Shown: one piece after another, positions 45,988-59,603 of the stretch
Layout of the letters: each line of letters begins with the position of its first letter
Numbering within the stretch: position 1 is the stretch's first letter
Virus record (IMG/VR): IMGVR_UViG_2896054739_000007
Coordinates: 64,001-128,000 of that record
Direction: 5' to 3' (one strand)
DNA from: a virus
Taxonomy: Duplodnaviria > Caudoviricetes
Length of the DNA stretch: 64,000 bases
The notes under the pieces: model-generated
What the model was told of the DNA's origin: nothing
The model's database searches: none
The model's input: only the letters and a program-made list of their open reading frames with translations
Program-made: the position numbers and the translations under genes

Positions 45988-46079
45988 TTAAAATATTTGA
46001 GATTATAAGTATTCTTATATTCATTTCTTATACAGGTGGCGGTACTGCTATTCTAGCGGTATCGTCATTTGTTTCTTTT

Positions 46080-48200: not shown

Positions 48201-48394
48201 ATTCCCTATCTCCTCTCTTGTGTGATGATATTATTGTACTACAGATTGGAAAGTTATGGAATATTATTTAACAACAGAATCGTCACGAGTGGATGATTAT
48301 TATATTTGGTTGACAAAGCCATAAACACATGTGTTGGAGAGTACGTGCTACTCTCCTATTTTATTAAAATGCAAAAATAAAGGAGATTTTTATA

Positions 48395-49884: not shown

Positions 49885-50096
49885 GTTTTATAGAGATATG
49901 GTATTGGTGAAAGTAAATACCCTACCAGTGATGAGGCTGGTTACTTATTGAACGGAAGGAAGTGAATATTTTATGTTCACTTCTTTTTTGTTTGGAGAAA
50001 AATATAGTGTCCAATGTGATTTCTTAGGGAATCATTTGGCTTACGGACTGGTATGGACTGTAAGCTAAATTGGTATCGGAACCTGCATTTGGAATT

Positions 50097-50191
50097 TGGG
50101 AGAGGATAAGGAAGTCTAGCTAACTTCTGAAGGTGGTACTCCGTATCCCACCGCCCTCTTCTATTTTAATTTTGATACGGAGAGATCGGAG
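50097..50191 (+). promoter_or_regulatory. Three-stem/pseudoknot RNA leader of endonuclease gene
   Basis: P1 50097-105/50155-163; P2 50110-15/50123-28; P3 50132-36/50148-52; loop CTCCGTATC pairs with GATACGGAG (50174-82). Confidence 0.65.
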
Positions 50192-50199
50192 AAATATGA

Positions 50200-52164
50200 A
50201 TGGGAAAAGCAGTTTATTTAGATGTTGGTAATAGAAAAGTATTAGCAACAAAAATAACTTATAATGATTTGATTATTCTATATAAACAATATATAGAAAA
50301 ATATAGCAGTGTTCCTATGCTTACTCAATGTTCATCTAAATACAATCTTCCGCAAGCAGGAATTGTTAAATCTGTTGTTAAAAATGAGGGTATTTCATAT
50401 AATGAATTTTTATTACAATTTGGAAAAGTAAGAACTTTAGATGTAAATGGAACACATAAAAATATTAGAGATTTGAAATATGATGACTTGGTTATTTTAT
50501 ATAATCAATATATAAATAAATTTCATGAATTTCCAACAGCAAATAAATGTACATATCAATATAATTTACCCTCAAGACAAATCATTTTAAAAATATTAAA
50601 AGATTGCCAAATATCTATTGATGAATTTAATAAACAATTTAGCATAAAAGACAAAAGACGTATTTATGAAGATATTCATATTGGTGATATTATTGGCAGA
50701 TGGAAAATAATAGGAAAAGGACAAAGTAAACAATCTAAAAAGAATAAAAATATTCCTTATTGGATTTCTCAATGTACATGTGGAAGCGGAATAATTAAAG
50801 AGGTTAGTGAAAATGCTCTAAAAAGAAAACAATCATTAAGTTGTGGATGTTTGAGAAATGAGGCCGTTGCAAACTTAAAGGGAAGCATTCGTTCACAATC
50901 ATTTTATGATTGGTGCATAGAGCAACATCATGAGGAATGGTTAAAAAGATGGGACTATGATTTAAATAATTTAGATCCAAAACATATCTCATATTGTGCA
51001 CATAAACAAGTCTATTTTAAATGTGATAAAGGAATTCATAATAGTACAAAATATGAATTGGCACATGTTTCTAATATGGACATTATACGATGTAAGTATT
51101 GTAATTCTTTTGCACAAAAGTTAATAGACGAAAAAGGTGAAAATGCTTTAGAATTATACTGGGATTATGATAAAAACAAACAAAATCCATGGGAAATTCC
51201 TGCATATTCAAAAGAACATGTGTGGATTAAATGTACCAAAACAGATTATCATGGGTCATATAAGGTTTCCAGACAAAATGCTTTAAGAAACGAGTGTCCA
51301 TATTGTTCTCATATAAGGATTCATCCAAAAGATAGTTTTGCTCAATGGATGATTGACAAATATGGCAAAAATAATTTTGAAAAAATATGGAATTATGATA
51401 TGAATACAATTAATCCATTTGCAATAGCACCTTCTACAAGAACATCAAAAGTTTGGTTGAATTGTATAGATACAACATATCATCCTCCAACTCATGTATA
51501 TCCTAATGATGTAAAAAATCATGAACATCATTGTAGTTATTGTGCTAAAAAATCTGTTTGCAAAGAAGATAGTCTTGGTTATATATATCCAGAGTCATTT
51601 AAATATTGGTCTGATAAAAATAATAAGACGCCTTATGAATACTTACCATATTCAAGTCAAAAAGTATGGTGGAAATGTAAGGATGATATTCACAAAGATT
51701 ATATTAGAAGTATTTGTGATAGTGTAAATTATGAGTTTAGATGTCCTAAGTGTTCATATGAAAAAGGTATATCATTTTTACAAGAAAAAGTGGATACATA
51801 CATTACGGATAAATATGGATATAATACGCTTCATGAACATAATTGTAATATTGTTCCTATTAATCCAAAAACAAATTTTCCATTACCTTTTGATAATGAA
51901 ATTGTCGAATTGAAATTGATTATTGAAGTCCATGGGAAACAACATTACGAAATAACAGGATTTACACAATTAACAGCAAAGCATTATAATACTACGCCTG
52001 AATATGAATTAAAATATCAAAAATGGAAAGATAAATACAAAAAGGAATATGCTTTAAAAAATGGATATAATTTTTTAGAAATACCATATTGGACTGAAAT
52101 CGACAATACATATCAGTCATTAATAGATAACAAAATTAAAACGATTTTAAAAGAAGCGGTTTAA
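50200..52164 (+). CDS. Free-standing endonuclease: zinc-ribbon repeats + C-terminal Vsr/PD-(D/E)xK-like domain
   Basis: Repeated WDY..N..P..VWxKC..H..CPYC; PFDNEI..IEVHGKQHY..D..K..LEIPYW. Confidence 0.8.
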   Translation: MGKAVYLDVGNRKVLATKITYNDLIILYKQYIEKYSSVPMLTQCSSKYNLPQAGIVKSVVKNEGISYNEFLLQFGKVRTLDVNGTHKNIRDLKYDDLVILYNQYINKFHEFPTANKCTYQYNLPSRQIILKILKDCQISIDEFNKQFSIKDKRRIYEDIHIGDIIGRWKIIGKGQSKQSKKNKNIPYWISQCTCGSGIIKEVSENALKRKQSLSCGCLRNEAVANLKGSIRSQSFYDWCIEQHHEEWLKRWDYDLNNLDPKHISYCAHKQVYFKCDKGIHNSTKYELAHVSNMDIIRCKYCNSFAQKLIDEKGENALELYWDYDKNKQNPWEIPAYSKEHVWIKCTKTDYHGSYKVSRQNALRNECPYCSHIRIHPKDSFAQWMIDKYGKNNFEKIWNYDMNTINPFAIAPSTRTSKVWLNCIDTTYHPPTHVYPNDVKNHEHHCSYCAKKSVCKEDSLGYIYPESFKYWSDKNNKTPYEYLPYSSQKVWWKCKDDIHKDYIRSICDSVNYEFRCPKCSYEKGISFLQEKVDTYITDKYGYNTLHEHNCNIVPINPKTNFPLPFDNEIVELKLIIEVHGKQHYEITGFTQLTAKHYNTTPEYELKYQKWKDKYKKEYALKNGYNFLEIPYWTEIDNTYQSLIDNKIKTILKEAV

Positions 52165-52207
52165 TATTTAATCACTTCTTTTTTTGTTTGAAAGGAAGTG
52201 ATACTTA

Positions 52208-53161
52208 ATGCCAGAACGCAGTAAACGAATTTGTCTTTATGATGAAGAAAAAGCAAAACATATAAATCCAGAAACATTAAAATTGTTCCAAAAATATCAG
52301 ATAGATATGTCAATTCGTGATTTATCTAAAAATACTATTTTACAGTATAATTCAGATCTTATGCAGTGGTTTATTTATATGTATAACAATCAATTTAATT
52401 TATCTGTAGTCGAGGCTAAAGATGAAGATCTCGAAGAATACTATTATTGGAGAAAACAGCAAGGGAATAATGTTAATAGACAAAAACGTGTAATGGCTTC
52501 TATTTCTGCTTTCTATAAGTTTTTGCGTAAGAAAAAATTAATCGTAGAATCTCCTGTTGAATTTATTGAACGTCCAAAAGCAGGACAACCAATTACTGTG
52601 CAAACATATCTTACAAAAGATCAAGTACAGTTAATGCGTGAGAAATTACAGGAGCATGGAGATATTCAATTACAGACTTATGCTTTTGTTTCCTTAACTA
52701 CTATGGCAAGAGTAAATGCTGTTGCAAATTTACGTTGGGAACAGATTGATTGGGATGAAAGAATATTTTCGGACGTATTAGAAAAAGAGGGTAAAATTGT
52801 TGAATTATCTTTTTCGGAAGAAACAAAGAGATATCTTGAAAATCTTGTACAGTACAGAAAAGATAATGAGATAAATGATTATGGTTGGGTATTTATTAGT
52901 CCTTACGTTACTGAAGATAAACCTATAAATAATGGAACTTTGAATGATTGGTGTAAGGTAATTGGAGAAATGATCGGTGAACCAACACTTCACTGCCACG
53001 ATTTTCGTCATTCATATGCCACGTTGCTTAAAAATGAAGGCGTAAATTTAGAGGATGTATCTGTTATGTTAAATCATTCTGGAACTGATGTCACGAAGAA
53101 ATTCTACATAAAAACGGATACTTCCAAAGTTCGTAAAATAAAGGATTCTATCAACATTTGA
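52208..53161 (+). CDS. Tyrosine recombinase (second)
   Basis: TMARVNA, EKEG, HCHDFRHS, LNHS..TKKFY. Confidence 0.9.
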   Translation: MPERSKRICLYDEEKAKHINPETLKLFQKYQIDMSIRDLSKNTILQYNSDLMQWFIYMYNNQFNLSVVEAKDEDLEEYYYWRKQQGNNVNRQKRVMASISAFYKFLRKKKLIVESPVEFIERPKAGQPITVQTYLTKDQVQLMREKLQEHGDIQLQTYAFVSLTTMARVNAVANLRWEQIDWDERIFSDVLEKEGKIVELSFSEETKRYLENLVQYRKDNEINDYGWVFISPYVTEDKPINNGTLNDWCKVIGEMIGEPTLHCHDFRHSYATLLKNEGVNLEDVSVMLNHSGTDVTKKFYIKTDTSKVRKIKDSINI

Positions 53162-53222
53162 CCCAATAAATCTCCAATTTCATCCAAGCACAACAATATA
53201 TCCGCAATTACGTAACAAAACA

Positions 53223-53400
53223 TTGACAACAGTTACGAATTGGTTTAAGATATTCTGTAGAAAGAGATTCTACACAAAACAAACAGCATCCGTTAGACGG
53301 TTGAGCCATAATTTGGTCGATTAATGGCTAATAAAACAAAATTGAATTATTAACACAAAAGTAACCGCTTTATTTCTCATGGCGGTTATTTTTGTGCCTT
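53223..53400 (+). ncRNA. Putative type I TA antisense RNA with its promoter
   Basis: TTGACA-17-TAAGAT; ends in hairpin CACAAAAGTAACCGC/GCGGTTATTTTTGTG overlapping toxin 3' end. Confidence 0.6.
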
Positions 53401-53489
53401 TTATCAAGGAACTTGACTATGTAAGCTGAAACTACTCCGCTTACAACGCCAATAACTAAAGGTATTACAATTAGTTCACAAATTGTCAC
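53370..53489 (-). CDS. Type I TA toxin-like peptide (39 aa, not in track)
   Basis: MTICELIVIPLVIGVVSGVVSAYIVKFLDKRHKNNRHEK: one TM helix + basic tail; GGAGG RBS, GTG start. Confidence 0.8.
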   Translation of the reverse strand: MTICELIVIPLVIGVVSGVVSAYIVKFLDKRHKNNRHEK

Positions 53490-53794
53490 TTCTTTTATCA
53501 CCCTCCTTTCTGAGCAAGGGTATCTATAAGATTAACAGAACATCGCTGTCCTGACGTGACTCAACCGCCTAACCGTCTTATCTAGCCAAAATAAAACGTG
53601 GATGCTGCTTGCACTTATTATTCTACAAAATATCCCATATATTGTCAAATAAATAGTAACAAAAAAAACTATAACAGGCTGACAACTGATAAGGAAAGTG
53701 TTGAGAGATTAAATTAGCGAATGGCTGCTGGGCAGTCTGACATTCTGGAAAGACAGAATATTCAGGAGAGTTTTCAGCACTCTCCTATTTTCAT

Positions 53795-54352
53795 GGGTAG
53801 GTGGCACAGCGGGGATAATAATACAATACATGAGGTGATATTTATAAGACAATGCTATGTTTGGAATCTTAGTAGGGAAGAAATACAAGAAAAAGTAAAT
53901 CATTGTAATAGTATATGTGATATGCTTGAAATTTTTGGATTTAAAAAAACAAGCGGAAGTATGGCTAAAGTAATGAAAAATATAATCGATACATATAACA
54001 TAAACACATCACACTTTAAACCATATAAAAGAACAAATCAAAAGCCAAAATATTCTTTATCTGAAATATTAGTCTGTAATTCCACCTATACAAATATTGC
54101 AAAATTAAAAGAACGAATTATAAAAGCTGGCATTTTAGAATATAGATGCGAATGCTGTGGTAATAAAGGAGTATGGAATGGACAAAAATTAACATTACAA
54201 CTAGATCATAAAAATGGTGATCATACTAATCATTCTATTAATAATTTAAGATTTCTTTGTCCAAATTGTCATTCTCAAACTGAAACATTTGCGGGTAGAA
54301 ATGCTAAATATGGTAGCAGATAACATCAGAGGTTCAAATCCTCTCCTGCCCA
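53795..54352 (+). pseudogene. tRNA (Tyr-like) split by HNH ORF: 5' part 53795-53812, 3' part ~54323-54352
   Basis: GGGTAGG pairs with CCTGCCC-A; intact T arm AGAGG-TTCAAAT-CCTCT; anticodon arm absent, so identity is tentative. Confidence 0.75.
53844..54323 (+). CDS. HNH endonuclease (probable ATA start)
   Basis: CECCG..LQLDHKNGDHTNHSINNLRFLCPNCHSQT; GAGGTG RBS. Confidence 0.9.
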   Translation: MRQCYVWNLSREEIQEKVNHCNSICDMLEIFGFKKTSGSMAKVMKNIIDTYNINTSHFKPYKRTNQKPKYSLSEILVCNSTYTNIAKLKERIIKAGILEYRCECCGNKGVWNGQKLTLQLDHKNGDHTNHSINNLRFLCPNCHSQTETFAGRNAKYGSR

Positions 54353-55190
54353 CTATATAAAAACAAAAATATAAAAAGAAAGTTGGTAAATAAATGGAAA
54401 CTCATGATATTGATAGACCTTTAAAGATGGGAGAAATCAGAAGTGTTAGAAGTAATGGTGGAACAACTCTGAATATGCTGGAATTGCTTTTCTCTCCCAC
54501 TACCATAGCAAAATTTGAAGTAAATAGAAATACAAATAAGGTTGATTTTTTAATAGATAATGTTGATTTAAAGTACCAGGATCTAAGATGTTCTCTCAGT
54601 AAAGATGTACTTAGAGATTTGTACATCTATATCAGGGATCTCTATAATGAATTGAATGATAAAGAAAGCGAGGAAAACAAATAATGAGAATTGAGCCAAA
54701 AAGAGATATTGAGGCGGGAAAATATTCAACTCTTCTAGTACCAATTTGGGGTACAAGCACTATGACAGAAGCAGATGAACTTGAGATGGCAAAGGATTTT
54801 CCACAAGTATTACGTTATGCAGACATAGAATTTAAAGGTAAATTCATTGTTACTAACGGGAATCCTATTATGTCAGACACAGAGGATGCTGTTGAGGTAG
54901 TTTTAGATTTAAATGACCAAAAAATCCCGATTAATGAGAATTTAAGTATTAGTTTGGAACTTGATTATAATAAGGTTTCAAAAGAGTTATTGGATGAAAA
55001 ATATCTAACTACGCAGGAATTATATACACAGGCACAGATTATTTTATTTGAATCAAAGATTAAGACAAAAATTCATGAACTTTTAGAAATTGCCAGAAGC
55101 AACGTAAATGACTTTTTGGTTACATCTGAGGAAGTTCTGTAAAAAAGTATCTGTATTGTGGAGAGTGGCTGTACTGCTCTCCTATTGTTT

Positions 55191-55273
55191 GCAAAGTAAA
55201 CCCATAAGGTTTGGGACTCCGTTGCTAACGGATGTGTTCTAAAAGGAATGGATTTCGATTGTTCCGCTTTGCG
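55191..55273 (+). tRNA. tRNA-Ser(GCU), somewhat degenerate
   Basis: GCAAAGT/GCTTTGC-G acceptor; TCCG-TTGCTAA-CGGA; variable arm; weak T stem. Confidence 0.65.
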
Positions 55274-55278
55274 TTTAT

Positions 55279-55372
55279 GGTGACGTACCGAAATCTGGTT
55301 ATAACGGCGCAGACTTGAAATCTGATGTGTTATGGAAAACATGACCTGTGGGTTCAAATCCTACCGTCACCG
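55279..55372 (+). tRNA. tRNA-Ser(UGA)
   Basis: GGTGACG/CGTCACC-G; CAGA-CTTGAAA-TCTG; long variable arm; GTGGG-TTCAAAT-CCTAC. Confidence 0.92.
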
Positions 55373-55470
55373 CTTCAAATAAGCATTTTATTGGATAATT
55401 TTTATAAAGTTGTTGAAATTCCACGTAACAATATGATATGATGTATATATATGAATAAGGTGGAAATGCT

Positions 55471-56434
55471 ATGCAAAAGATATTCAAAAATAAAGAATTA
55501 AAAAATGCCATTTCACTAATTTTGACGGTTAGTATTGGTTTAATCGGATCATCTATGGGTAGCTGGAATGCAAAAGAAGATAAATTTTTCCAATTAAAGT
55601 TAGTTTCACTTGTTGTTTTATCTTTTATATTTATAATATTTCTTATTTTTTCTTATATATATGATCGAAAAGAAAGCAAAATATTAGATGAATGCTATGA
55701 TGAAATAAAAAATCTAAAATCTGAAATTAAATTAAAAGAAAAAGAAATCAAAGCTTATGAAAAAAGTCAACTTGCGTTATCTGCAATCTTAGAAACAAGT
55801 GCAGATGATATAAATACTACAGCAAATAACATTAAAAAAAATGATGTAATTTCGCTTGATAATTGGAATTTTAGAAAAGAATGTAACTGGATTTGCGAAA
55901 AAATCTTAAGTATAATTTCTGATTTATCAATTAATGGTGAAGATTTTGTCGTAAGTATTTTTCAATTAAATCCATTGTCAAAAGGAAAATCTAAAAGTAT
56001 TACAATGATTGCGCATTCTAGCAAATTTAGAAACACTCCAGATATTTATGGAAAACCATTATCTTTTAGAAGAAACTCTGAATTCTATGCGGTAAAGCTA
56101 TTTAAAAAAAAATAAACATGAACCAGATGTACTTATTGATAAGAATGAAGTAAATGAAAGATTTATATATAAAGATGAAAATAATCATCCTGACTATTCT
56201 CAATACATTGCAATGCCTATACATTGTAGTGGAAATGATATGCTTTCATTATTACAAATCATAGCTTTTGGAGAATCAAAATTGGGGAATACTAAAATTG
56301 AAATTACCCAAAAAATCAACAAATATTTACTTCCTTATATCCGCTTAGGACTTATGTCATATAAATGCGAAAAAGCTCTTCTTGCCAGTGGCTATTTAGT
56401 AGAGAAAATGAAGGGAGGTGCAGGTAATGAATAG
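55471..56434 (+). pseudogene. Two-TM, coiled-coil, GAF-like moron protein frameshifted at A9 run (56104-56112)
   Basis: Removing one A fuses ..AVKLFKK to NKHEPDVL..YSQYIAMPIHC..LLQII. Confidence 0.55.
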
Positions 56435-56855
56435 TATTAAACAAGCATTATTATCAGAAGATGAATATGTCAAAAAAATACTAAGCCCCCTTTATAATAG
56501 TAATGAATCTCAAGAAGCTGTCATAAATAATAACCAAAAACAAATAGATGAGCTACTTAATACAGAGAAACGTATAAAAGAGCAAATGGAAGAACTTTTA
56601 TTAAAGTATGCAAATCAATAATTTGTAGCAAACAACATAACAAAAAGACTGTTAAACTATGATATGACAGTCTTTTTGTATAGTTAGAAGAATGGTTTAA
56701 TTCACTACATAGTAAATACATTATGAAATAGAGCCTTATTGTTCAGTAAAGAGATATTATAATACGCTGAGTATGATATTTTCAGAGTCAGAGTTGCCTC
56801 CAACAATATCTACGATTTATAATAAATCAAAAGAATTAAATCTCCTGCTCTTTTT

Positions 56856-57578
56856 TTAATATGCAGTGAAGGCATCTAATGTATTATCTCTTGCACTCTC
56901 ATCATTATAATCAAGTGAAATCATTATTACTCTGTCACCAACAATACGAAAATAGTTATCTTTATATCTGAAAACATTGTTAAAGTCTACCATGTAACTA
57001 ACCATAATGTAATCATCGTTACCTATTCTTATAGTTTTATCATCACTAATCAGTACATAATTATAAAAGGGATGCCGATCTATTTGCGACTCAAATGACT
57101 CAATAAACTGGAAAATATCTATTTCATCAGTCAATCTCTCTGTACATACTCCTGCAATAATTGACTTGTCATCAGACATACTCATCATTTCAAATACAGT
57201 AGTAAGCTTTGCTTTCCCTAACTCATTTTGATTAAAAACTATAGAAGGACTTCCATCTTCAAACTCATTCATCTTATCAAGCTCTTCTTCTGTAGACATG
57301 TTCATTCCTGCTGGATTGGTATATCGAAGTCCAATAAACTTACTTTCCCAACCTGTTTTTGTTATAGTTCCTCTATAGTATTCCTCTTCTGTATTGTTTC
57401 CAGAAGTTTTTTGCATTAACATTGAAGGTCTAATCGTGAAAATAAGTGACATTATCGTTAATATAACAGCAATAATAGAAGCCCAATTAGGTTTATCTTT
57501 TATATATAAATATATACTAATGCCTCCTAAAACGATAGTCAAAAATAAAGATATATTCTCTCTCATATATACACCCAT
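56856..57578 (-). CDS. Membrane-anchored protein (moron, opposite strand)
   Basis: Two N-terminal TM helices then a soluble domain. Confidence 0.65.
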   Translation of the reverse strand: MGVYMRENISLFLTIVLGGISIYLYIKDKPNWASIIAVILTIMSLIFTIRPSMLMQKTSGNNTEEEYYRGTITKTGWESKFIGLRYTNPAGMNMSTEEELDKMNEFEDGSPSIVFNQNELGKAKLTTVFEMMSMSDDKSIIAGVCTERLTDEIDIFQFIESFESQIDRHPFYNYVLISDDKTIRIGNDDYIMVSYMVDFNNVFRYKDNYFRIVGDRVIMISLDYNDESARDNTLDAFTAY

Positions 57579-57811
57579 AAATAAAATTTAATAATAAACA
57601 TTTCAAATTACAATTAAAGTATATCATACCAGATGTTTAAGTAAATGCTTTTGCCAGAAATAGATAGTGTAATTTTACTTTAGGTCTTGAAATATATACG
57701 TAGTTTATCCAATATCACACCAAAATAGCATGGGACAACAATTTTCCTGCACAATACCAAATTTCATAGGAAATGTTTCTATTTCAAAAATCAAAGAAAA
57801 TTTTACACTAT

Positions 57812-57881
57812 CAAAAAATAAGATAATTGGTAGTCCGCTGGTTGGGACCAGACGCTGTAGGTCCAAGTCCTGCTATTCAGA
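57812..57881 (+). pseudogene. Decayed tRNA-Pro(UGG)-like relic
   Basis: D-loop AATTGGTA, CTGGT-tggg-ACCAG with shortened loop, GTAGG-TCCAAGT-CCTGC; 5' acceptor strand lost. Confidence 0.55.
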
Positions 57882-57885
57882 TTTT

Positions 57886-57911
57886 AGACAGTCATCATGG
57901 CTGTCTTTTTT
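57886..57911 (+). terminator. Intrinsic terminator
   Basis: AGACAGTCA/TGGCTGTCT + T tract. Confidence 0.65.
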
Positions 57912-57960
57912 AATTTCAATTATAACACAATATTTCAAAGAATGAAAGGATGGTGACAAC

Positions 57961-58081
57961 ATGCCAAGAAAAAAAATCACAATCATCTGGCAATAAACCG
58001 TTGCCAGCCAATCAACAAAAAGGGAAAAAAGTATGCACATGCTGTCACGAGGAGAAAAATTTAACAGAAAAAAAGAAATAA
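57961..58081 (+). pseudogene. Truncated N-terminal relic resembling the 59619 gene
   Basis: RBS + MPRKK/SQSSGNKPLPANQQKGKKVCTCCHEEKNLTE, parallel to KKKCPICGDNKSIATGFY. Confidence 0.55.
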
Positions 58082-58138
58082 ATAATAACGACTATGAGAG
58101 GATCGATTTTTGTGTTCGTTACACAAGTGGTTGTATCC

Positions 58139-58242
58139 GAGTAGAAGACGCAAGGAAATCATGAGCCTTGTGAGTTGGTTACTAACCTCACCACTCTTCT
58201 ACTCTTTTAATGATTTTTTTGAGGTTAGGGAAAGAAGGTTAG
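58139..58242 (+). promoter_or_regulatory. Three-stem/pseudoknot RNA leader (same fold as 50097)
   Basis: P1 58139-48/58195-204; P2 58149-55/58166-72; P3 58176-79/58190-93; loop CTAACCTC pairs with GAGGTTAG (58221-28). Confidence 0.65.
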
Positions 58243-58247
58243 AAAAT

Positions 58248-59603
58248 ATGGGAAAGAGAATAACTACAGAAGATTTTAAACACACTATTTTTGAATTAAC
58301 TGGAAACGATTTTGAATTATTATCGGAATATAAAACAGCTAAAACCAAAGTGTTAATGAAGCATAATAAATGTGGCAACAAATTTGAAATTGCTCCAGAT
58401 AATTTTAAATCTGGAAATCGGTGTCCATTTTGTGCTGGTAAGAGACATAATATTGACGAAGCTATTAAAAAAGCATCAAAATTAAATCTTTTACTTTTAG
58501 AAGATAAATATGTTGGAATATTTAACAAAATGAAATGTACATGTAATGCACATCCAGAAGAAGGAATTTTATATACATCAATGAGTGCTTTGAATCTTGG
58601 AAATACATGTTGTCCTAAATGCAGATATATAAAAGCAAGAATCACAGAAACAAAAAATATAAACATTGATGATATAAGAAACGAATTCAAGGAAAGAAAT
58701 TTAACTTTAATTTCTATGGAATATATAAATTGTAAAACTCCATTAACATATATTTGTAATAAACATATTGAAGATGGTGAACAAATAGTTACATATGACG
58801 CATTTAAAAACAATACTAAATTTTGTTGTAATTCATGTGCTAAAGAACACATATCAAATTTACACATGACACCAATAGAAGATATTAAAAAGATTGTAGA
58901 AGAACACAATTTTGAATTTATTAAAATATCAAAAAATGGTCGCAGAACTATGGTTCATTGTATATGTAATGAACATAGAGATAAAGGTATTCAAATAAAA
59001 TCACTTTCTGGAATCAAAAGAGGTTTGGGATGTATTTATTGTGCTGGGATAGCAAAATTTACACAAGAAGAATTTGAATCTAAAGTCAAAGAAAATGATA
59101 GAAATATTCAGATTGTATCCAAATACAACGGAAATAAAAGCAAAGTAAATTGTAAGTGTAAACAATGCGGATACGAATGGTCTTCTATTGCTTCTAATTT
59201 AATGTATGGCGGTGGTTGCCCTAATTGTTCTGGTAGTAAGGGCGAAATGCGAATCCGAGATTATTTAGATGATAATAATTTAAATTATGAAAGAGAGTTT
59301 TCTTTTGATGATTTATATGGTGATTGCAATAAACAGTTACGGTTTGATTTTGTAATATTTAATGAAGATGGAACTATCAAATGTCTTATTGAATATGATG
59401 GTATACAACACTTTAAGCCAATTAACTTCTGGGGTAATGAATATTCACATACACAAATTAGATTTGAAACATTGCAACGATACGATAATAGAAAAAGCAA
59501 TTATTGTAAAGATAATGGAATTTTATTGATTCGTATTCCTTATACTGAGTTTGATAATATAGAAAACATTTTAGAAAGTCGGCTGTCTTGTCAGTCGGCT
59601 TAA
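58248..59603 (+). CDS. Free-standing endonuclease: CxxC repeats + C-terminal Vsr/DUF2726-like domain
   Basis: SKGEMRI..LRFDF..IEYDGIQH..D.RK..C..LIRIPY. Confidence 0.82.
   Translation: MGKRITTEDFKHTIFELTGNDFELLSEYKTAKTKVLMKHNKCGNKFEIAPDNFKSGNRCPFCAGKRHNIDEAIKKASKLNLLLLEDKYVGIFNKMKCTCNAHPEEGILYTSMSALNLGNTCCPKCRYIKARITETKNINIDDIRNEFKERNLTLISMEYINCKTPLTYICNKHIEDGEQIVTYDAFKNNTKFCCNSCAKEHISNLHMTPIEDIKKIVEEHNFEFIKISKNGRRTMVHCICNEHRDKGIQIKSLSGIKRGLGCIYCAGIAKFTQEEFESKVKENDRNIQIVSKYNGNKSKVNCKCKQCGYEWSSIASNLMYGGGCPNCSGSKGEMRIRDYLDDNNLNYEREFSFDDLYGDCNKQLRFDFVIFNEDGTIKCLIEYDGIQHFKPINFWGNEYSHTQIRFETLQRYDNRKSNYCKDNGILLIRIPYTEFDNIENILESRLSCQSA

Follow-up and report, generated by a model that had tools for sequence, protein, structure and literature searches.

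Homing nuclease genes usually persist either between genes or within a self-splicing intron or an intein that hides the damage. Free-standing homing nucleases are also found splitting protein-coding genes ('genes in pieces', e.g., mobE in the nrdA gene of Aeromonas phage Aeh1), in which case a functional enzyme is assembled from the two protein fragments. An intron-borne homing nuclease has been reported in a tRNA anticodon loop, where the nuclease reportedly targets this region of the uninterrupted gene and the self-splicing ribozyme around the open reading frame (ORF) restores the tRNA. A review of 2014 placed all phage introns then known in protein-coding genes, despite the many tRNA genes of phages (PMC3984707). 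Free-standing nucleases tied to phage tRNA genes are exemplified by SegB of phage T4, a GIY-YIG enzyme encoded in a tRNA cluster, which targets a motif in the TpsiC stem-loop and promotes the inheritance of the tRNA region; expression of SegB is coupled to the processing of tRNAs, with RNase P clipping the segB stop codon (PMC2330249). The SegB homologues are generally tRNA-associated, and SegB has been tied to tRNA-Tyr dynamics (PMC13096335). The F-TflI/II/IV nucleases of phage T5 and the F-TflIV-like HNH proteins, such as gp141 of Escherichia phage ACG-C40 and HegA of Enterococcus phage Bop, belong to the same family as the gene analyzed here, with matches at the DNA level. The homologues of isolated phages that are annotated as similar to T5 F-TflIV adjoin tRNA clusters or reside in them, either immediately ahead of a phage tRNA gene or between two such genes; one, for instance, lies 6 nt ahead of the first tRNA in a T4-like tRNA cluster, and another lies between tRNAs in an Enterococcus phage.

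The window analyzed here, a 64,000-nucleotide stretch of phage DNA, contains a gene of this family that differs from these copies in its location: they are intergenic, with whole neighboring tRNAs, whereas the gene in the window lies inside a tRNA gene, which is destroyed. The explanation that we favor, with a probability of about 0.7, is that a free-standing F-TflIV-like HNH homing gene was inserted, without an intron, into a phage tRNA-Tyr(GTA) gene, and that the tRNA ends on both sides are relics of that gene. Like SegB, the window HNH protein is a free-standing nuclease tied to tRNA genes; unlike SegB, which belongs to another nuclease superfamily, resides between tRNA genes and has a T-arm target, it appears to be directed at the anticodon loop, as indicated by the insertion point. 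The site and the predicted target region in the uninterrupted gene are shared with the intron-borne nuclease as reported, but no ribozyme surrounds the window gene and the tRNA is lost. The intron-less insertion into a host gene resembles the mobE type, with the difference that the product is an RNA, which, at any rate in the window, cannot be reassembled. The element thus combines known kinds, namely, the homing nucleases of tRNA clusters, the free-standing nucleases that split genes and homing at the anticodon loop. The literature searched, which extended to journals other than subscription ones, contains no description of an intron-less nuclease gene in the anticodon loop of a phage tRNA, which is weak evidence of novelty.

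The window belongs to a phage-like 190-kb contig (C112) with a G+C content of 33%, and the other contigs of the assembly average 43% G+C. This phage contig carries no other tRNA-Tyr, and tRNA-Tyr is present on bacterial contigs of the assembly. The 5' relic (Table 1) consists of the acceptor 5' strand, U8-G9, the D-stem 5' strand and the D-loop (GGGTAGG-TG-GCAC-AGCGG from 53795). The 3' relic begins with the last bases of the variable arm and overlaps the final two bases of the HNH stop codon (54321-54323); the T arm begins five bases past this stop. The two acceptor strands pair at all seven positions, including one G-U. The absent part, tRNA positions 22-52, corresponds to the entire anticodon arm together with the 3' strand of the D stem and the greater part of the variable arm, such that the window lacks a complete cloverleaf with a GTA anticodon; neither ARAGORN nor Rfam produced a tRNA call at the split locus. 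To judge from these sequence features, the tRNA-Tyr of the window is a dead split pseudogene that cannot decode.

Table 1. Features of the split tRNA-Tyr locus and of the corresponding loci in related phages (positions refer to the window).
Feature	Locus	Position	Strand	Remarks
Tyrosine integrase gene	window	52208-53161		630 nt upstream
Terminator-like hairpin AGGAGAGT-TTTCAGC-ACTCTCCT, then ATTTTC	window	53764..53786	+	delimits the tRNA slot on the left; conserved in all relatives
5' relic of tRNA-Tyr(GTA)	window	53795..53815	+	tRNA positions 1-21; 3 differences from the intact tRNA-Tyr of L109
Cassette leader	window	53816..53843	+	same leader and spacing in L119, L120 and L115; absent from the intact allele
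Shine-Dalgarno sequence GAGGTGAT	window	53832-53839		GAGG core 8 nt before 53844
F-TflIV-like HNH endonuclease gene	window	53844..54323	+	159 codons and TAA
HNH/zinc motif CxxC ... DH ... N ... CPNCH	window	~54147-54272		
3' relic of tRNA-Tyr	window	54322..54352	+	96.9% identical with L109 from 54322 onward
T arm AGAGG/TTCAAAT/CCTCT	window	54328-54344		
Acceptor 3' strand CCTGCCC	window	54345-54351		
Discriminator A	window	54352		
Gene for 152-aa protein	window	54684-55142		
Slot content: intact 84-nt tRNA-Tyr(GTA)	L109-L112			
Slot content: different tRNA-Tyr	L001			
Slot content: tRNA-Asn	L092-L097			
Slot content: tRNA-Trp	L098-L108			
tRNA-Asp, HNH, then intact tRNA-Tyr 20 nt past stop	L116			free-standing
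Intact tRNA-Tyr, 54 nt, HNH	L121			free-standing
HNH in tRNA-Tyr anticodon loop	L115			both halves complete, every stem perfect
3' tRNA half only	L120			begins at stop codon, TAA-A-TCAAG
Same slot in a more distant phage	L119			5' half damaged, 4 nt of acceptor strand lost; 3' half full
Split tRNA-Tyr	window			5' acceptor and D-loop kept; 3' anticodon strand and variable arm lost

Related loci were fetched using the 152-aa protein encoded downstream as a handle. The sister contigs L109-L112 share the flanks of the split locus and carry an intact tRNA-Tyr at this locus, with positions 1-21 and 53-84 of the L109-type tRNA aligning with the two pieces in the window (3/21 and 1/30 differences, respectively); the two pieces therefore represent one tRNA rather than a chance resemblance. 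In the blastn comparison with L109, the alignment breaks between 53815 and 54322, with 82% identity across 53240-53815 and 96.9% identity across 54322-55319, and accordingly, a 506-nt sequence stands in place of 31 nt of the tRNA. The jump in identity across the cassette also implies a recombination boundary at the nuclease gene, which fits the previous observation that nuclease genes mark such boundaries (PMC10448857). The identical 152-aa protein is accompanied by the HNH allele in all 7 distinct places read (in L085-L091, the arrangement is that of the window letter for letter), and close variants of this protein are accompanied by an intact tRNA. The HNH allele is thus polymorphic for presence and absence among close relatives, as expected of a homing endonuclease gene. 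Furthermore, the same mouse-gut runs hold both contigs with the HNH allele and contigs with an intact tRNA-Tyr middle.

The locus is a slot with well-defined borders. The hairpin on the left is kept in L001, L092, L098, L109, L113 and L119, directly 5' of whichever tRNA occupies the slot, and the landmark on the right, AAAGAAAGTTGG, which precedes the next gene, is common to all relatives fetched. A single tRNA is located between the two, and its identity varies among the relatives. The limits of the replaced segment coincide exactly with those of the tRNA, pointing to a cassette-like exchange of tRNAs. Among phages with a 95-99% identical 152-aa protein, the slot contains tRNA-Tyr, of which two unrelated types of sequence occur, or else tRNA-Asn, tRNA-Trp or the split Tyr. 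The single-tRNA slot (53787-54393 in the window; also in L001 and L092-L113) adjoins a gene for a 96-aa protein on the right. There is also a second slot approximately 130 nt past the 152-aa gene, which is occupied by tRNA-Ser(TGA) in the window (55279-55373) and by tRNA-Ser(GCT) in L092-L097 (3508-3596 in L092), and is devoid of a tRNA in L098-L108. The motif consisting of the hairpin and CTCTCCTATTTT occurs twice in the window (48335-48362 and 53764-53791), with one copy preceding an HU-like gene (the second of the two), and may be a shared terminator or regulatory element.

The 506-nt cassette consists of the leader and the HNH gene, with 28 nt outside the ORF. The encoded protein contains the HNH/zinc motif, is similar to the family over its full length, and matches Pfam PF01844 (22.4 bits, with a cut-off of 21.4) and PHROG 10822 (E 6.7e-42, residues 26-175); the invariant columns of the family (CxxC, DH, N and CPNCH in an alignment of 16 relatives) are all kept. 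There are 2637 homologues, the nearest of which are 159-166 aa long and show 66-78% identity. A sequence search of solved structures with the HNH protein returned noise only (E at least 0.18), and the NCBIfam search gave no match above the cut-offs. The pairwise dN/dS values among the six members of the clade to which this nuclease belongs, including the lineages with an ATA start (see below), are 0.07-0.17, indicating purifying selection; given these low values and the intact invariant residues, the nuclease gene is likely to be maintained and working. The main descriptive claims of the initial annotation thus hold: an HNH nuclease ORF (as confirmed by the Pfam and PHROG matches) is flanked by the 5' part of a tRNA, a T arm and a complementary acceptor strand, all located as given in Table 1; the tRNA, described there as Tyr-like, is identified as such by the intact tRNA-Tyr(GTA) of the sister contigs, in which the intact allele that had been proposed as a check was indeed found; its anticodon arm is gone, consistent with the missing positions and the null ARAGORN and Rfam results; and the proposed replacement of the tRNA-Tyr middle by a homing-type HNH gene corresponds to the exchange of 31 for 506 nt relative to the L109 allele.

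The start of the HNH gene is unusual. The conserved start of the protein falls on 53844, where the window has ATA and the homologues, which open with MAKS.IWNLSKEEIQ, have ATG. ATA is also found at the start in L119 (465) and L120 (2528), with identical Shine-Dalgarno spacing, and ATG in L115, L116 and L121. The reading frame is open upstream to an ATG at 53793, the G of which is the first base of the tRNA, and to another ATG at 53721; hence gene callers report ORFs of 176 aa (from 53793) or 200 aa (from 53721) that run through the tRNA relic and the hairpin. ATA is a weak initiator codon. Its conservation, together with the low dN/dS, argues that the ATA start is probably functional unless an upstream start is used, and its retention in three lineages with dN/dS near 0.15 suggests initiation at AUA, which would imply low expression of the nuclease, or from upstream starts. 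A sigma-70 promoter scan from 53300 to 53800 detected no convincing promoter on the + strand. Within the last HNH codons, a hairpin (TGCTA-AATATGG-TAGCA, 54302-54318) mimics an anticodon arm (UAU, but with A33); it is absent from the relatives and is probably due to chance.

Association with tRNA genes is a general feature of the family. Among the first 81 loci fetched from IMG/VR (80 of which contain HNH homologues), 78 had tRNAs within 1.5 kb. Across 165 loci, an intact tRNA on the same strand starts between -40 and +60 nt from the HNH stop codon in 64, often with an overlap of 9 nt, and an orphan T arm with the 3' acceptor strand is found 5-36 nt from the stop in 12, the window included. 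Two further large nuclease-like genes (50200-52164 and 58110-59603; PHROG 559, HNH/homing endonuclease, with DUF4379 in relatives) bracket the window locus, making this a region rich in selfish nuclease genes. In L014 and L015 (1366-2025), two copies of tRNA-Trp(CCA), one of them only 70 nt long, flank the HNH gene, and this pair may be a duplication made during insertion. A GOLLD RNA-like element is located among the tRNAs of L115 (1845-2267; Rfam RF02032, 100 bits, E 8e-26, short of the gathering score of 150), and the window itself contains a skipping-rope RNA (RF02924, 25798-25876 on the - strand, 79.6 bits, above the gathering score).

The window nuclease belongs to a clade of six (support 100/99) within a wider group of ten members, almost all of which are located beside tRNA-Tyr. 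Arranged by the state of the tRNA, the loci of this clade form a graded series from free-standing genes to an insertion in an otherwise perfect tRNA and then to increasingly eroded relics (Table 1). In L115, the 5' half of the tRNA ends in ...CCTGA-CTGT and the 3' half begins at the stop codon, TAA-TCAGG...; L119 and the window have a common 5' junction in the D-loop. In all four clade members with an insertion within the tRNA, the T arm and the 3' acceptor strand are perfect and it is the 5' halves that decay; retention of the 3' piece could reflect a role, e.g., in 3'-end formation, in stability or as a homology arm. The arrangement extends beyond this clade. The L143 nuclease, which belongs to another clade and shows 40% identity, is inserted after the CTGT of a tRNA-Tyr-like gene, with AA and the stem following the insert, and thus seems to have entered the same anticodon-loop position independently. 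In L057 (1360-1985), which represents a third clade, a different tRNA is split by a complete tRNA-Phe and an HNH gene; its acceptor strands (GGGGCGG/CCGCCCC) are paired 7/7 and its D arm is intact, and the 5' strand of the anticodon stem is missing. L008 contains this tRNA-Phe-HNH unit as well, with an orphan 3' piece of a tRNA after it. On comparative sequence grounds, naked insertion of a nuclease gene at the anticodon loop, with no intron, appears to have occurred in at least three independent nuclease lineages.

These observations point to the following scenario for homing as the most probable one. When relatives co-infect, the enzyme would recognize the anticodon region of their intact tRNA-Tyr genes and cut there; the break would be repaired from the nuclease-bearing allele, with the conserved tRNA segments and the flanks of the slot providing homology, and the cassette would be copied in. 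The occupied allele would be immune because its target is interrupted and, in the window, deleted. The gene would first have entered the anticodon loop behind C-U-G-U, an arrangement that L115 and L143 still show; the anticodon-loop target is read solely from the position of the insertions in L115, L143, L119 and L120. The window would then represent a more advanced stage of decay, the anticodon arm having been lost along with the 3' strand of the D stem and the variable arm. The host supplies tRNA-Tyr, making the phage copy dispensable, and naked insertion would therefore be tolerated and the remnants would subsequently erode. Comparison of the window with L119 reveals five differing pairs in the acceptor and T stems, all of them fully compensated. 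We attribute these to homing into different tRNA-Tyr alleles, with each transfer resolved within the conserved central segments of the tRNA and the outer stems of the recipient presumably kept; selection for pairing would produce the same pattern, and acceptor/T-stem covariation was therefore set aside as evidence of function. The coexisting alleles, the jump in identity and the compensated stems all fit ongoing exchange.

The alternative that deserves most attention, unlikely as we consider it, is that the tRNA ends are retained for RNA processing, as proposed in the initial annotation. The relics would pair as an acceptor/T-arm minihelix, and RNase P together with 3' trimming, possibly followed by CCA addition at the 3' end, would release an HNH mRNA with protected tRNA-like ends. 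A precedent is known, namely, the cleavage by RNase P at the segB stop codon, and a similar proposal has been made for the F-Tfl genes of T5 (PMC2330249). In the MFE fold of 53765-54375 as well as in the centroid fold, 53795-53801 are paired with 54345-54351 and the T hairpin is formed; however, the fold of the whole region is no more stable than those of shuffled sequences (z = -0.58), and a 7-bp helix would have to close over 500 nucleotides and more that are being translated, which is doubtful on kinetic grounds. The retention of the T arm and the 3' strand in 4/4 in-tRNA members of the clade agrees with a role in processing, but the 5' strand is absent in L120 and 4 nt short in L119, and conservation of the relics does not exceed that of the flanking sequence (3/21 nt changed in the 5' relic vs. 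82% identity of its flank; 1/30 nt in the 3' relic vs. 96.9%). Among the 12 loci with a tRNA 3' piece at most 36 nt past the stop, the acceptor strands pair 7/7 in three (the window, L115 and L057) and 6/7 in L143 and L119, whereas 7 lack an upstream partner, some of these on short flanks. Plausible as the idea is in physical terms, the comparison thus lends no support to the claim that the acceptor/T pairing is maintained for processing, given that the relics have diverged about as much as the flanks and that the 5' strand has decayed in L119 and L120. Engineered tRNA scaffolds are an artificial tool in which an RNA insert is carried between paired tRNA ends, and the picture drawn in the initial annotation resembles them, most literally in L115 and L143. 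A more elaborate version, in which the relics are a natural tRNA scaffold that gives the mRNA exonuclease-resistant ends and, in L115 and L143, the insert is excised and the halves are ligated by RNA-repair enzymes, appears quite improbable; if true, it would amount to protein-dependent tRNA splicing in a bacteriophage, with a translated mRNA as the 'intron'. We found no evidence that the natural arrangement is processed or stabilized in the manner of an engineered scaffold.

Two further readings have very little to recommend them compared with the insertion of a free-standing homing gene. That the insert is an unrecognized intron, removed by proteins or by a cryptic ribozyme to yield a working tRNA, is a highly unlikely proposition, even though the anticodon loop, the position of the insert in the less decayed relatives, is the classic site of tRNA introns. 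In the window, the Tyr anticodon arm is physically missing, so that true splicing is excluded, and the intact, refolding exon halves of a bulge-helix-bulge tRNA intron are not present. Nearly the whole insert is ORF; as the initial annotation had it, there is no room for an intron core, and for 50000-58000, the Rfam searches detected neither group I nor group II introns at E<=10, and they yielded no intron at E<=1 in L115, L143, L119, L120 or L057. In its intron mode, ARAGORN does report a 'tRNA-Ser(aga)' interrupted by an intron of 471 nt, and it accepted 351 of the 2025 in-silico joins as tRNAs, those listed all being 'tRNA-Ile(tat)'. These calls, however, depend on the single hairpin at 54302-54318, for which position 33 is A, the variable loop measures 9 nt and the D arm is poor, and this hairpin is missing from L115, L116 and L119. 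They were rejected as junctions of the true acceptor and T relics with a hairpin in the conserved NAKYGSR codons; moreover, the 'tRNA-Ile(tat)' joins are unlike the real tRNA-Ile of the phage at 46079. Among the contigs from RNA runs, no spliced form was seen, and the apparent 'joints' are the intact tRNA middle, that is, the other allele. Least probable of all is that the 3' piece is an attP-type core of the tyrosine integrase encoded 630 nt upstream, with the 5' piece a coincidence. Phage attachment sites often copy tRNA 3' ends, which together with the proximity of the integrase gene speaks for this reading; however, a single intact phage tRNA of the sister genomes matches both pieces in collinear order, the same slot holds whole tRNAs (Tyr, Asn and Trp) in relatives, and a 25-mer from the 3' piece has no match within 3 mismatches, in a tRNA or any other site, in the rest of the 4.7-Mb assembly. 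The attP reading fails because the assembly contains no matching host tRNA. An exact search of IMG/VR with the 25-nt 3' relic likewise found no match, and a search of 61 genomes (G000 and 60 relatives) yielded only a short flank match.

The series that leads from free-standing genes through clean insertion to relics offers a natural setting in which to study how associations between nuclease genes and introns arise, as well as the fate of the insertion when the host gene is dispensable. On the practical side, split loci of this kind are missed by tRNA finders, and gene callers predict too long a nuclease ORF, one that runs across the tRNA relic. Finally, the locus illustrates one route of turnover of the phage tRNA repertoire, given that near-identical phages fill one and the same slot with a Tyr, Asn or Trp gene or with the dead Tyr. 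Such turnover gains relevance from the link drawn between phage tRNA-Tyr and escape from tRNA-cleaving defense (PMC13096335).
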